DNA of 64,000 bases. Source: Eledone cirrhosa. Its lineage: Eukaryota. Positions 18,909 to 48,884 of the stretch are shown piece after piece (positions within the stretch are counted from its first letter, which is position 1; each line of letters starts with the position of its first letter). Position numbers and translations under genes: made by a program. The DNA lies in contig OZ024745.1 in assembly GCA_964016885.1 (NCBI GenBank), forward strand, positions 128,340,001 to 128,404,000. Direction: 5' to 3'. A model generated the notes under the pieces. The model ran no database searches. It saw only the letters and a list, made by a program, of their open reading frames with translations, and was not told the DNA's origin.

Positions 18909-19102
18909 AACGAAGGAAATGTGGTAAGGAACCAGGTGGACCATAACGCACCAAAGTACTCAATACTTAGGGTAGTAGAGTGGATAATAGGAACAAGTAA
19001 GACCCCGACGGCTGAGCTCAAGCCGTTTCGACGGCTAATTCTGGACTGAATTAGCCGTCGAAACGGCTTGAGCTCAGCCGTCGGGGTCTTACTTGTTCCT
19101 AT
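18909..19102 (-). mobile_element. Family C hairpin element (hammerhead 3' half only)
   Basis: Perfect hairpin 18987-19102; GAAA-cggct..agccg-TC motif; TTGAGTAC box; (TA)n on both sides. Confidence 0.8.
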
Positions 19103-19758
19103 ATATATATATATATATATATATATATATATATATATATATATATATATATATATATATATATATACGATTGTGTGAGAAGAAACTGAAAGAATAAAAG
19201 ATAGAGTCGGAGAGATAGTAAGTAAAAGAGAAAGGAAAGACAATGTAAGAGTAAGAGAAGTAACGAGCAGGGAAGAAAGGGGTAGTGATGATAATATATA
19301 GAGCGATAGAGTAAGAGGTAGAAATATAAATGCACTGCGATGGTAGCGGATTGCAGGCGATTTCTACACGGAAAACAAAGAGGATGGAAAGGACACATAT
19401 ACACTCGCAAACATTGCAATATATATATATATATATATATATATATATATGTATATATATATATATATATATATATATATATATATATATATATATATAT
19501 ATATATATATATATATATATATATATATATATATATATAAATATATATATATATATATATAAATTTATGTATGCATATATATATACACATATATATGTGT
19601 GTGTATGTATATGTATGTATATATATATATGTATATATATATATATATAAATATATATATATTTATGTATGTATATATATACACATATATATATGTGTGT
19701 GTGTAAGTATATGTATGTATATCTATGTATATATATATGTATATATATATATATATAT

Positions 19759-19993
19759 AACGAAGGAAATGTGGTAAGGAACCAGGTGGACCATAACGCA
19801 CCAAAGTACTCAATACTTAGGGTAGTAGAGTGGGTAATAGGAACAAATAAGACCCCGACGGCTGAGCTCAAGCCGTTTCGACGGCTAATTCTGGACTCAT
19901 GCGTCCAGAATTAGCCGTCGTAACGGCTTGAGCTCAGCCGTCGGGGTCTTACTTGTTCCTATTATCCACTCTACTACCCTAAGTATTGAGTAC
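19759..19993 (-). mobile_element. Family C hairpin element
   Basis: Nearly identical to 18909-19102 with a longer inverted arm. Confidence 0.8.
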
Positions 19994-21297
19994 TTATTGG
20001 CAACATGACCCTCCCAAAGTATAACAATATATATATATATATATATATATATATATATATATATATATATATATATATATATATATATATATATTTATAT
20101 ATATATATATATTTATATATATATGAAAAGATGCCAGTAAAAGTTTTGCGTGTGTTTATTTCTGCATGTTTGTGCCTATTAATAATTACTATGTGCGTGT
20201 ATTTGTGTATATATACGTATACACATATTTACGTATACACATATTTACGTCTATACGTATATACGTACGTTGCTTCATCGGATCAAATGACATAGTAAGC
20301 TTAGTGATGTCACTGTAACAAAACTCAAGAGACTTATGTCATGCTTCCTTCTCTCCACATTAAATCCTGCAGTGTGTTTTTAGATGGATGCCATTTAGTA
20401 GGATTGGCACTACTTTTGACATTCCTGCTTTGCAATATTCTATGTCTGGCGACAAACCCTTGTACGCTTAATATCCTGTGAATATTTCACGAAACCAGAA
20501 CACTTAGACGTCGTTTTAGTGTATGTATGTGTATATATACATATATATATATATATATGTGTGTGTCTGTGTGGGGGGGGGTGAGTGTGTATGTGTAGGT
20601 GTGTGTGTGTGGATGTTTATGTACGTGTGTTTGGTTGTGTAGGTGTTTGTGTGTGTATATATATATATGTGTGTGTAGGTATATATATATATATATATGT
20701 ACATATATATATATATGTACATATATATATATATGTATATATATATATATATGTATACATGTATATATCTAACTATGTATATATGTATCCATGTATCTAT
20801 ATATATATATATATATATATATATATATATACTTACTTGTATAAATACATACTTACACACATGTGTGCTAGTATATATATATATGTGTGTGTATATATAT
20901 ATATATATATATATATATATATAATAGTCATTCTTGTTATTAGTAGGAGTGAGCCATATATAAGTATGGTGCTTTAATCACTTAAGTATCGGTATTTCCT
21001 TAATCTCAAAAAATATTCTACCAGTTTCTCGTTACTGTTGTTATTGTTACGCCAGTAATTGTTATTGTTGTTACTGTTGTAGCAATTGTTTCACATTCAC
21101 ATAATAGATACCATATGTATAAGATGACTAGATAAGCCTGTATCTGTGCTTTTGTCTCCAGATATATGTTTTACTAAGAAATATTGAGGGTTGAAAATGT
21201 TAACTCTATAAGCCGCCATTAATTGCTGGGTAATTTTGCTTTTAATCTGTAAGGGTTCATCTGCTAGATTACAGCATGTAGATGTTAACTGAGTAAT

Positions 21298-21373
21298 CTT
21301 CTTCTTCTTCTTCTTCTTCTTCTTCTTCTTCTTCTTCTTCTTCTTCTTCTTCTTCTTCTTCTTCTTCTTCTTC
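21298..21373. repeat. (TTC)n microsatellite
   Basis: Pure array. Confidence 0.95.
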
Positions 21374-23427
21374 TATATACATATATATGTATGTTATAGG
21401 TAATTCCGAATGAAAAGCAAAGGGAAAAAGAGTGCTCTATGTATAGAAACAGAGCTATTTAATTAGCTATCTAATATATATATATATATATATATATATA
21501 TATATATATATATATATATATATATACAAAATTTGGTTAAATTCACAGTATTTTCATCAGTCGAATACGGATATTAATACATGTTTTCGTGGTATGCAGC
21601 CATCAAAATATCTTTCATCATTCTGTTCTGTGTTGCACAATTTACATGTCGTCTTACCATTCAGGTAAGGACTTGATTTTTCCAGGATTTTCTATTCGAG
21701 AAATCCGCTCTTTCAACCTTGAGGAACCAGACGTGTCTTGCCAGCTTCCTGTAACCATAGGTCGATGCATGGTTTAGGACGTCCCTAAATTATTGAATTT
21801 GTTTCTCTCCTGTGTGCAAATGGACAAATATATATATATATTGTGAGTGTCTGAGTGTGTACGTGCGTGTGTGTGTGTGTTGAGTGTGGAGTTACAAGTA
21901 CTTCAGTCTCTTCCTTTATACATAGAAAACTAAACTAAACCACCAAAATCAGCAGCCAGCTCTTTAAATTATAAAACTAATAACGTAACGTCGTTTATAA
22001 AAAATAAACAACACATTGGATAAGACAGTGGAACACATACTATGTATGATAAATACGACAGGAGCATCATGGCTGGAATGTCCTTGATCGTAGTTACGCC
22101 TTCTCCATCAAGGCTGGACTGAAACTAAGCAACTACAACATTCAATGTCATAAGCGACAGCTGCATTAAAAAGCTAAAAAAAAAAACACTTCCGCTATCG
22201 TCACTAGAACTAAAATAAATCCCACCAGCAACAACTAAAACAACAAGTACAAAAACTACAATCAACAACAACAACAACATCCCAATCCTCCACCCTCATT
22301 CATTTACCAAGCCTCTTTCCGAAAATATTGCTCCAGTGTAGAGATAAAAATGAAATTATGAAATAGTTTAAACTTCACCAACACTTGACATTTGAAATCA
22401 ACACGTAGAGAAAGAGGGTTGATGAGGGTGATGGGAAGTTCCGGCTTGCTGTTTCACTTCCAACCCGGATGTTTTTGCCGTCGGCAGGAAGTGATTCCAC
22501 GTGCCTATACTTATATGCAAGGCATATTTTATTCCCAAATATCCCACAAGTTTACTAGTTGCACACGCACAGATAGAGTGGCAGAGAGAGAGGAAGAGCG
22601 AGAGATAATATGCGTGAGAGAAAGGGGGTGAGGGGGAGAGAGAAAGGGGGAAAGAGAGGGAGAGAGAAAGAGAAGGAGAGAGAGAGAGAGAGGGGTATGC
22701 ATACAAACATATACATTTATAAATTTCATGTATTCTCTCTATATTTTTATAAGTAAATACAGATAATTTCTTGCAGTTTCAATATGGAAAGTTAGAAAAA
22801 AATATGAAATAAAATTATGCTCGCAATTTCAAGAGCGAATTTGCCTTTAGGTGTGTTCAGATAACGAGAAGCAAATAAGGGAGAGAACTCTTTTAGACTG
22901 ATCTTATCCAATTCCTTTTTAGATAGTTTGCAATAAGAGTTGATGTTGTCTATAAGCCAGTTTACATGCAATTTCATCTCCACATTGAAGCATATTCATT
23001 TTACAAGTTGGCTAGACAAGAATGGTCAGATATAGGAAAGGATAGGCTTAGTTGTGTGTATGTATCTATTATATACATACAGCTATACATATATATATTT
23101 ATATATGTGTGTGTGTGTGTGTGTGTGTGTGTGTGTGTGTGTGTGTGTGTGTGTGTGTGTGTGTGTGTGTGTGTGTGTGTGTGTGTGTGTGTGTGTGTGT
23201 GTGTGTGTGTGTGTGCGTGTGCGTGTGTAGGTATACAGAGGGATGGACAGACAAAGAGACAGACAGAGAAAAGATAGATAGATAGATAGATAGATAGATA
23301 GATAGATAGATAGATAGATAGATGACTAAATACAGACGTGCTTTCATTTTGTGAAAACATTTTCCCGTTTCTTTCTTTTCTTTATCTCGTTTATCTTTTT
23401 TATTCTTTCTTGAAGCTCTCGTTATTT

Positions 23428-23465
23428 ACTCCCGTGAAGGACTTACGTCCAAAACGTTAATAGAC
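23428..23465 (+). ncRNA. Decayed minimal hammerhead relic
   Basis: cccgtga-a-ggac ttac gtcc-aaaa-cgt-ta: stem II is intact but both boxes are mutated. Confidence 0.35.
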
Positions 23466-23767
23466 TTTTCCTACTCTATCCAGCGTTAAACTAATATACC
23501 TCATCATTATAACGTATTGTTCTCCTGTGTTGTTTATTTTTGTTGACTTTTCATATATATATATATATATATATATATATATATATATATATATATATAT
23601 ATATATATATATATAAATTTGAGTATGTGTTGGTTAGTTACCGATACTTTAGTATGCAGGGTAGAGCACTCAACAGTGTGCGCGGGTTGGTCTGTTTACA
23701 CCGGAGTAATTTAAAAACTAGAAGTGTAAGTCAACAAGTTAAAATTAAGTTCGTTTAATCATATTCG

Positions 23768-47751: not shown

Positions 47752-47925
47752 GTTATTCCGGGTTGAATCGGAGGTAACCACAGTAAGTAAGGTACTCAAT
47801 ACGTAGCAGAGTATAAAAGTTTTAATGTAGATGAGTTTCTACAGGACTAGAACTGTTTCATTCTTTAAAATGATTTCTAAAGAATGAAACAGTTCTCGTC
47901 TTGTAGAATCTCATCTATATTAAAT
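47752..47925 (-). mobile_element. Family D hairpin element
   Basis: Reverse complement of 6980-7145; hairpin ~47822-47923. Confidence 0.7.
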
Positions 47926-48063
47926 ATATATATATATATATATATATATATATTGGTGTGTGTGTGTGTGTGTGTGTGTGTGTAGGAGGTGAGTTTTATT
48001 GTAGTACAATAAAGCAAGGCAGATATCGGCTAAGTAGCACTCTACAGTTTGTAGGACTGGAGT

Positions 48064-48158
48064 ATAAATAATATAAGATCAAAAGATGGTTAAAAGATTT
48101 CCAAATGCGCATAATAAAATACATGGAACTCTTTTAACCATCTGTTGATGTTATATTA
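48064..48158. repeat. Imperfect hairpin abutting (TA)n
   Basis: aatataa.atcaa.agatggttaaaaga / tcttttaaccatct.ttgat.ttatatt. Confidence 0.6.
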
Positions 48159-48295
48159 TATATATATATATATATATATATATATATATATATATATATA
48201 TATATATATATATATATATACGAGATTGTGTGTGTGTGTGTGTTAGGTGATAATAGTCAAAATAAGTAACACCATAATTCAACTTAGTAGTCCAT

Positions 48296-48478
48296 GATTG
48301 GCAGTGTCGGTAGAGGGTCGGACGCCATGCTTTGACGCATAGAGTTACGGCCCTTGCCATTCTGAGTTCAAATCCCGCCGAGGTTAACTTTGCCTTTCAT
48401 GCTTACGGGGTCGATAAAATAAAGTACCAGTAATGTACTGTGTATTGCTGGCCTTGTGCCAAAAGGTAGAAACAATTA
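48296..48478 (+). mobile_element. SINE family 1
   Basis: Family consensus. Confidence 0.85.
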
Positions 48479-48768
48479 TTATAGGAGATGGAATTTGAAC
48501 TGTTCCGATGCCAAGGAACCGTCGAAATGGTTTAAGACTGACCATCAGACATCTTATTTTATATATATATTTGTGTGTGTGTGTTTGTGTTTGTTTGTTT
48601 GTGTGTGTGTGTGTACAAACAGTACAGTATATGGATGCTATTCCGTGATGAGGAGATAGAATGATATATAATAAAGAGTTGACGGACCCAGCAGTTAGGT
48701 GTGTAACTATATATATATATATATATATATATATATATATATATATAAATATATATATATATATATAT

Positions 48769-48884
48769 ATAGGAAAAGGTATGACCCCGACAGCAGAGCT
48801 GAAGCCGTTTCGACGGCTATTTCTGGACAGAAATAGCCGTCGAAACGGCTTGAGCTCTGCCGTCGGGGTCATACTTTTTCCTAT
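48769..48884. mobile_element. Family C hairpin only
   Basis: ataggaaaaggtatgaccccgac...gtcggggtcatactttttcctat. Confidence 0.75.

Follow-up and report, generated by a model that had tools for sequence, protein, structure and literature searches.

The six hairpins in the window (the whole 64-kb stretch of DNA that was analyzed) are the shortest insertions of a Hydra-type Penelope-like retroelement (PLE), and they are very abundant stubs, with at least 12,477 in the genome. They likely carry only half of a hammerhead ribozyme because the RNA of the element probably begins in the middle of that ribozyme. We place at roughly 70% the probability that the hairpins are dead-end insertions, in which two reverse-transcription events on one RNA ran off its capped 5′ end within loop II of the hammerhead. 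Inverted pLTRs, tails and PLE hammerheads have already been published, and what is new is a probable start site inside the ribozyme.

Hairpin copies and their parent element

All six hairpins listed in the preliminary description of the window are present (Table 1), and (TA)n adjoins each of them. Three copies were folded, giving z-scores of −18 to −22 relative to 200 shuffled sequences, none of which (0/200) folded as well. As claimed earlier, the retained half is the 3′ half of a hammerhead and the hairpins are ribozyme-dead, in that a hammerhead cannot form in cis. A search with the CTGANGA..GAAA pattern also bore out the absence of CTGANGA upstream of stem II in all six copies; the sole match overlapping a copy (6436–6463, at copy 6283) is part of a neighboring small hairpin. 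The four loops quoted previously agree with copies 18909, 19759, 43074 and 48769. The GAAA attributed to copy 19759 is found on its − arm, while the + arm has GTAA. Copy 42884, from a diverged subfamily (TTAAACATTTTCC), has no loop and its left arm terminates within stem II, and the right arm of copy 6283, a member of a sister subfamily with a tail similar to that of L336/L338, lacks GAAA. The long arm of copy 18909 aligns with positions 3149–3286 of parent locus L051, and its short arm has the short 3′ end, at TTCC/TA. Compared with Rfam, the window gave only microsatellite-driven miRNA matches with sub-gathering scores among the 150 listed of 334. Genome-wide, the exact core occurs 55,036 times, and hairpins number 12,477 at a spacer of 0–30 and 1,576 at one of 31–60.

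Table 1. Hairpin copies in the window and their arms, with predicted landmarks (+1, the A of TYAGTC).
Feature	Position	Strand	Description
Copy 18909, long arm	18910..19047	-	predicted +1 A at 19047, then GAAA, stem III, GUC, 80-nt tail, long 3′ end
Copy 18909, short arm	19048..19099	+	stem II 3′ strand, GAAA 19060-19063, stem III, cleavage C 19082, stem I 3′ strand
Copy 19759	19760..19995	.	- strand long arm ending at predicted +1 (19897)
Copy 42884	42885..43062	.	- strand long arm trimmed into stem II; + strand short arm
Copy 43074	43075..43276	.	- strand short arm; + strand long arm with tail; predicted +1 A 43141
Copy 48769	48772..48884	.	two short arms; left arm ending at +2
Copy 6283	6284..6440	.	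- strand long arm with GAAA; + strand short arm beginning after GAAA

A parent with an intact ribozyme exists in the genome, as had been supposed. The pattern proposed for it, ACCCC-CTGANGA-GACGGC (CTGANGAGACGGCWA), matched the genome 18 times, in no case in this hairpin family; such a search misses the parent because its 5′ box is mostly UUGANAA, a U3-A8 variant, and only sometimes CUGAGGA. The parental motif is instead ACCCC-TTGANAA-GCTCGGCTA (929 arms with an exact intact box) or CTGAGGA-GYTCGGCTA, and the pLTR of the parent contains a complete type I hammerhead. In an alignment (A1) whose rows were retrieved by patterns requiring these cores, we found the features of that type, namely core boxes with the 3-8 pair, GAAA, an NUH site and three stems; 87.7% of cells are paired, compared with 19–50% in slid controls, and pair 3-8 is C-G in 9/15 and U-A in 6/15. 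The hammerhead fold lies within about 1 kcal/mol of the minimum in some subfamilies and up to 6 above it in others. Rfam gave no match to the intact parent.

The parent, located elsewhere in the genome and outside the window, has a unit of 3.1–3.5 kb. At locus L051 (G000:C1:11225700-11232600) it is arranged as pLTR-ORF-pLTR with an inverted arm, and the ORF, 719 aa from the ATG, encodes a reverse transcriptase (RT) and a GIY-YIG endonuclease (EN) with the motifs FDIESYY, YRDDG and VIYQC..AYIG. Look-alikes of the ORF in the ESM Atlas (0.96–0.99) carry GIY-YIG, RVT_1 and HTH_animal on 18–100% of members, while Pfam and PDB sequence searches with the ORF returned no match. As in EN+ PLEs, RT and EN share a single ORF, partial pLTR tandems with an inverted arm occur (L051, L146 and L147), and the tail is one-sided in 119 of 127 hairpins. 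The Hydra-clade motifs SDKTG, CNCPDRSIC (CxCX5C linker), CNLCSEE (CxxC) and LLNK..CKH (CxH), the last two around the E and N of the EN, are found in the ORF product (P0001), which carries RWR at the RWK motif, and the (TA)n targeting of that clade is reflected in the (TA)n that flanks the window copies and most retrieved loci. With a period of 3,118 bp (L051) or about 3,540 bp (L147), the element exceeds the Hydra-clade size of less than 3 kb, a limit that holds only "generally" (PMC8557442, as far as its text was available).

In the available portion of Craig et al. (2021; PMC8557442), the Hydra clade of C-terminal EN+ PLEs resembles the present element in its single ORF, DKT, CxCX5C linker, C-terminal GIY-YIG-like EN, CxxC and CxH motifs, (TA)n targets, pLTR hammerhead, partial tandems, inverted 5′-truncated copy and one-sided tail. 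It differs in unit length (under 3 kb versus 3.1–3.5 kb here), in RWK (RWR here), in a tail of 30–40 nt (80 nt here) and in the ribozyme core, which is mostly U3-A8 here. That portion contains no mention of 5′ breakpoints at a transcription start or of a start within the ribozyme, and a search of its supplement for Hydra ribozymes with a U3-A8 core gave unrelated sequence. The PLE hammerheads described in the available text of Cervera and de la Peña (2014; PMC4209133) share type I topology, a palindromic loop 3 and G10.1-C11.1, and U3-A8 covariation in Schistosoma and oppositely oriented motifs 100–700 bp apart are reported there. In contrast, the present hammerhead has a full 5–6 bp stem III and a loop II of 37–39 nt that likely contains the core promoter, and most of its genomic copies are the 3′ half alone. 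Non-LTR retrozymes, which are non-coding tandem monomers with a complete hammerhead (bioRxiv 10.64898/2026.07.22.740005, available portion), were rejected as a match, given that the 5′ box is missing from the hairpins and that the parent is a coding element.

The arm boundary and a putative transcription start

The fold point, previously placed at stem II, lies 4–14 nt upstream of the stem II 3′ strand, inside loop II of the parent, and the 5′ ends of the arms pile up at, or just below, the A of TYAGTC (+1). We scored 124 hairpins, all located on contig C1 or in the window, of which 81 belong to one subfamily; in 0/248 of their arms does the match to the parent extend beyond 4 nt upstream of +1. 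The further-reaching arm ends at most 1 nt from +1 in 61 of the 124, and 20 reach −4 through ambiguous 4-nt microhomology. Genome-wide, 21 of the first 100 of 20,870 arms reaching +1 extend upstream (hand tally).

An untemplated G often precedes +1: the base at this place was G in 70 and A in 30 of the first 100 of 1,519 arms (hand tally), compared with G in 6 and A in 15 at four other breakpoints (Fisher p = 0.0008), a control comprising only 21 arms from selected loci rather than genome-wide. Where junctions contain inserted bases, the extra G was present in 9/14 versus 6/37. Past +1, an A (antisense) is added in 42 of 100 arms, an addition that is indistinguishable from read-through of 1–3 nt. 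In the window, the center of copy 19759 has 5 untemplated nt with a cap-like C first (19898–19902), and its + arm runs from +2 to part-way along the tail. A TATA-like word (TATTTAAA, TATTCAAA or TATTTATT) is found at −29/−31, after the 5′ strand of stem II; these words and the +1 A match their consensus imperfectly, and in four diverged sister copies the A is conserved but the TATA word not clearly so. No downstream promoter element was matched by eye at +28. Thus, the extra G and the TATA-like word suggest a probable capped start at +1, and the A of TYAGTC likely marks that start inside loop II of the ribozyme. The 5′ box was previously thought to be deleted at the GC-rich stem II; the sharp loop II boundary with its cap-like G suggests instead that the box was likely never on the template. 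A splice acceptor (TTTAG) behind the boundary was rejected, as the arms retain A and G.

Other families have boundaries of their own. In a sister family, 20 of 43 arms (hand tally) end at AGATTC, exactly 30 nt past TATAAATA, and a third family has a pile-up at CCACTATCC with the TATA word absent at −30. Families D and F had been described as sharing the half loss, but in the sister family, taken as D or F, most arms end immediately 5′ of CUGAUGA and retain that box, indicating that loss of half the ribozyme is not general.

The same two arms could also end at +1 if the RT stalled at the ribozyme fold or if a nuclease had made an uncapped RNA end. A weak helix is possible in loop II, and RTs add untemplated bases at any template end. 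However, the predicted helix would be encountered about 4 nt before +1, neither stem II nor stem III stops the arms, the excess of G is confined to +1, and the sister-family boundary lies elsewhere relative to the ribozyme, yet again 30 nt past TATAAATA. We consider such an end improbable relative to a capped start.

Speaking against a TATA-directed start, the one PLE promoter to have been dissected, that of Drosophila Penelope, is TATA-less and internal (Schostak et al. 2008; PMC2377424, available text). Penelope of Drosophila virilis likewise starts inside the pLTR and requires a partial tandem for transcription; it is TATA-less with a DPE and an intron, whereas upstream TATA-like and initiator-like words are predicted here.

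Origin of the two arms

Two 3′ ends are fixed, at +58 and +138, and a small bulged hairpin follows each of them within a few bases. One arm has the short end and the other the long end in 119 of 127 hairpins. In 116 hairpins the further-reaching arm is the long one in 54, the short one in 37 and neither in 25 (for leads of at least 3 nt, 37 long versus 18 short), although central deletions in palindromes may obscure which arm extended further. In the large insertions L051, L052, L146 and L152, the short-ended arm is longer by kilobases. Because the ends are one short and one long and either arm is able to reach further, two cDNAs are favored over a single fold-back, as are two primings over the self-priming invoked in the preliminary description. 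The view that both arms of a hairpin share a single source is upheld, since the same haplotype occurs in both arms of 26/34 hairpins (7.6 expected) and the GTAC/GTCC variant agrees in 14/14. Passing of +1 is also correlated: of the 100 intact arms listed, 50 are distributed over 24 loci in which the opposite arm is intact too (hand count), and for the first 20 of the remainder the partner also passes +1 in 11 and stops at +1 in 0. At the large insertion L052, one arm passes and the other stops near +1.

A single cDNA from the long site might instead fold back in loop II and copy itself, with endonuclease cleavage later setting the short end. Fold-back is close to the self-priming suggested earlier and to the self-priming and EN-resolution ideas in the available text of PMC3846280 and PMC8557442. 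It would make correlated passing of +1 automatic and agrees with the shared haplotypes, the more frequent lead of the long arm and the common TGGACT loop with its 4-nt stem extension. Nevertheless, the lead of the short arm in 37/116, and by kilobases in the four large insertions, would need large secondary deletions, many junctions have loops of 0–2 nt, and the boundary at +1 is left unexplained by fold-back itself. For another PLE, Poseidon PAc of Anolis, RT was seen in vitro to start at two internal sites and to extend both strands of the target (Frangieh et al. 2024; PMC11167929, available portion). On balance a single fold-back seems unlikely, and two cDNAs remain our preferred origin. 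PAc further resembles the present element in that its two start sites bound the tail, its target is AT-rich, both strands are cleaved and the RNA template is uncleaved; it differs in that stem II is where its ORF begins and in that a multi-copy mRNA is assumed as the template. The portion available contains no treatment of inverted arms or the RNA 5′ end.

Amplification of a hairpin-only element, either a MITE-like DNA element or a non-autonomous retroelement, is largely refuted and very improbable. In its favor, Stowaway-type MITEs typically target TA as well, there are about 13 hairpins for every exact intact arm, and some junctions recur (14, 9 and 9 of 124). Against it, 77 of 124 junctions are distinct, the recurrent ones span two or three subfamilies in both orientations, a private variant is shared in 1/46 pairs with the same oriented junction versus 45/2,804 other pairs, and arm lengths form a continuum up to full-length retroelements. 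The junctions thus arose independently, as proposed before, with no descent shared by junction. A MITE was rejected on these distinct centers, the lack of junction-linked descent and the asymmetric ends (119/127); target site duplications are unreadable in (TA)n. The junction of copy 48769, TGGAC/AGAAA, recurs in other subfamilies.

Proposed mechanism and implications

In the mechanism that we favor, RNA polymerase II would start at the A of TYAGTC, 29–31 nt past the TATA-like word, yielding an mRNA that begins with the GAAA-stem III-GUC half alone. The element protein would cut both strands of the (TA)n target and prime one cDNA from each internal start site, and the two cDNAs would be 58 and 138 nt long on meeting the cap. 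Trimming of their 3′ ends would be followed by head-to-head joining, probably through host end joining, with 0–4 nt of microhomology or with short templated inserts at the junction. A second, rarer class of RNA without an end at +1, either read-through or circular, would give rise to the long insertions and the partial tandems.

More tentatively, and with doubt outweighing our confidence, the promoter nested in the ribozyme may act as a split-ribozyme switch between translation and replication template, with the half-hammerhead mRNA cut only when the missing half pairs with it. The source of that half could be the 3′ pLTR, either on the same RNA or on a different one, and the cut would shed the capped 41 nt and permit a unit-length circle. 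Capped linear RNA would then give roughly 90% of insertions, the dead hairpins, and only processed RNA would give long arms and tandems. Such a switch would be consistent with the tendency of the two arms to pass +1 together, with the palindromic loop 3 and with a few loci (L156, L159 and L161) where the cDNA apparently jumped from the cap to an end at GUC. Among 9 short duplications matching a candidate jump from cap to cleavage site, 4 leave the parent exactly at GTC and 5 continue past it, a hint only, both of such jumps and of self-cleavage at GUC, as the search pattern is blind to joins upstream of GTC.

Penelope-like elements are the closest relatives of telomerase. How their inverted and tandem insertions form is named as an open question in the available text of PMC8557442. 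Half-ribozyme stubs in the tens of thousands, as well as the U3-A8 parent, escape searches with CUGANGA descriptors. The junctions in the genome, more than twelve thousand of them, serve here as a fossil 5′ RACE: they suggest the position of the RNA start and an origin of both arms in one RNA or RNA class, and they suggest that integration on capped mRNA mostly aborts after 58 and 138 nt. The half-ribozyme stubs may thereby offer a testable clue to how Penelope-type elements copy themselves.

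The parent ribozyme and its element

All six hairpin copies named in the preliminary description (6283, 18909, 19759, 42884, 43074 and 48769) were found at their positions, each adjoined by (TA)n, and the three that we folded gave z-scores of -18 to -22. The GAAA ascribed to them holds only in part: the + arm of 19759 has GTAA instead, and the right arm of 6283, which belongs to a sister subfamily, lacks GAAA. Copy 42884 has no loop. A TA run beside an older insertion takes new insertions, producing hairpin clusters at 42885-43276, 6284-6506 and 48772-48934 of the window and also at loci L106 and L180/L181.

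In a search of the 3.0 Gb genome, 55,036 sites matched a 21-mer from the hairpin core without mismatch, as against 0 for the control. There were 12,477 hairpins whose spacer is 0-30 nt long and 1,576 whose spacer is 31-60 nt; by eye, the longer spacers are inserted copies or A/T runs, not extra parent sequence, in most of the 50 loci listed. The intact parent first proposed, ACCCC-CTGANGA-GACGGC, had 18 matches genome-wide, all unrelated. Non-hairpin copies read ACCCC-TTGANAA-GCTCGGCTA-loop-TAGCCGTC-GAAA (929 exact arms). Judged from its sequence, this motif has all parts of a type I hammerhead, U3-A8 replacing C3-G8, a core variant already described for hammerheads of Penelope-like elements (PLEs) in PMC4209133. 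An Rfam search of the motif returned no match. The canonical C3-G8 core occurs in 8 copies of the hairpin family and in 4 sister copies; because divergence is only about 1%, these eight double changes are unlikely to have arisen by chance. Of the 15 rows in a hammerhead alignment, all chosen by core pattern, 9 have C-G at positions 3-8 and 6 have U-A, and 87.7% of the alignment's cells are paired. Seven intact arms picked without such selection carry U3-A8 (5), C3-A8 (1) and G3-A8 (1).

At the reference parent locus, L051, the layout is pLTR-ORF-pLTR followed by an inverted arm as well, the pLTR being the pseudo-LTR-type repeat that holds the hammerhead. The element shares the Hydra-clade marks listed in section 11 of PMC8557442 with two exceptions, RWR where the clade has RWK and a length of >3 kb. 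Pfam and PDB searches with the parent ORF returned no matches; look-alikes of it in the Atlas bear the families GIY-YIG, RVT_1 and HTH_animal. A bulged hairpin follows each 3' end, short and long (folding z -0.3 and -2.6).

Positions of features in the parent element and in related hairpin families
Feature	Reference	Position
Predicted transcription start (+1)	L051	3149
Predicted cleavage site	L051	+41
Short end	L051	+58
Long end	L051	+138
ATG	L051	+232
Sister family copies, trimmed further	window	47760-47923, 5176-5332, 6977-7146
Third family, full hammerhead in each arm, same short/long end asymmetry	window	342-681, 5971-6225, 25589-26026, 31619-32065

The arm boundary at the predicted transcription start

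We scored 139 hairpins. The set draws on the 50 that head the list for contig C1, on 90 of the 100 leading matches to the 18909/19759 subfamily, with a few overlaps, and on those of the window; 12 were set aside for mutated or deeper junctions, and 3 further ones had no subfamily. Taking the A of TYAGTC as the reference point, no parent match in any of 248 arms extended further upstream than 4 nt. The further arm stopped <=1 nt from this A, the predicted +1 in loop II of the parent hammerhead, in 61 of 124 hairpins; in the rest it reached -4 (20, ambiguous microhomology) or -2 or -3 (11), or was shorter (32). A search pattern that omitted one common junction class gave 20,870 arms that reach this A. 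In a hand tally of the first 100, 21 run on into parent sequence further upstream, and the others have C (23), T (4), G (10) or A (42) as their next antisense base. Because passing arms, those that match the parent upstream of +1, continue for tens to thousands of bases, the boundary appears to be a discrete template end.

Reverse transcriptase (RT) crossing an m7G cap leaves an extra G as a known trace. Among the first 100 of 1,519 arms (hand tally, partner-derived bases largely excluded), 70 have G and 30 have A as the sense base preceding +1, compared with 6 arms with G and 15 with A at four other breakpoints (p = 0.0008). Additionally, a TATA-like word, TATTTAAA, TATTCAAA or TATTTATT, lies 29-31 nt upstream of +1, and TCAGTC/TTAGTC at +1 resembles the initiator consensus.

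In the sister family (25,759 pattern matches), 20 of 43 arms end at AGATTC, immediately 5' of CUGAUGA and 30 nt after TATAAATA (hand tally). Arms of the third family end at or near CCACTATCC, a site about 90 nt 5' of the hammerhead core; no TATA word was found at -30 from CCACTATCC, and this boundary backs the start-site reading less than that of the sister family. A hairpin of another hammerhead family (window 2473-2657) keeps the whole ribozyme, and its fold centre, AGTTCC, precedes the core by about 30 nt and is again initiator-like. Larger fold-back insertions from other families lie at 18451-18843 and 23730-24101, the latter with the CTGATGA hammerhead complete in each arm. The window also holds a tandem array of about 13 copies of a 64-bp unit (27555-28388, identity 94-99%) and an abundant dispersed repeat whose size, about 190-280 bp, is SINE-like; it lies at 12876-13158 and about 15 further places (identity 75-92%).

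Origin of the hairpins and their templates

One short and one long end were present in 119 of 127 hairpins. The long arm reached further 5' in 54 of 116, the short arm in 37, and 25 were equal; the short-ended arm of a large insertion can exceed the other by kilobases. Two primings can give a short-ended arm that reaches further, while fold-back of a long cDNA cannot without secondary deletion. In another PLE, two internal RT starts with extension of both target strands are described in PMC11167929. Both arms are of one haplotype in 26 of 34 hairpins (expected 7.6), and they agree at a loop variant in all 14 cases.

The 124 hairpins had 77 distinct junctions, recurrent ones were found across subfamilies and in both orientations, and only 1 of 46 same-junction pairs shared a private variant, compared with 45 of 2,804 other pairs, indicating that hairpins are newly made each time. 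Of the independent self-priming or template switching proposed in the preliminary description, independence is retained, while the 37 hairpins with a further-reaching short arm speak against self-priming. Its alternative, an amplifying hairpin-only element, finds no backing in the same-junction copies, which lack common descent. Some junctions carry short tandem re-copies of arm ends and long A/T runs (for example G000:C1:52722037 and C1:80881056) and look like either templated insertions by polymerase theta or RT that has primed anew several times.

Applying the 21% to the 20,870 arms, out of 55,036 in all, puts the share that passes +1 at roughly 8%. An intact opposite arm lay near 50 of the 100 intact arms listed (hand count); for the first 20 of the others, the partner passes +1 in 11 and stops there in 0, while 9 lack a clear partner. 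Locus L052 is one exception to this sharing. Since independent cap jumps would not make passing common to both arms of an insertion, two RNA classes are suggested as separate templates: capped RNA would yield the hairpins, and longer or circular RNA the long arms and tandems. Of nine short duplications that restart at about +1, four leave the parent exactly at GTC, at most a hint of cleavage there. At locus L156 (G000:C2:233147534), an intact upstream ribozyme runs to GTC and is joined via TAA to G-AGTCC, as if a cDNA had switched at the capped start to an RNA whose end lay at the cleavage site.

Several of these features appear in earlier papers: inverted pLTRs, palindromic junctions and one-sided tails (PMC3846280, PMC8557442), PLE hammerheads (PMC4209133), transcription starts inside the pLTR (PMC2377424) and twin RT starts (PMC11167929). 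Within the openly accessible literature searched, PMC3681739 included, we found neither fold points mapped to a transcription start nor a transcription start inside a ribozyme. The hairpins are an ordinary insertion class with one unusual, testable property.
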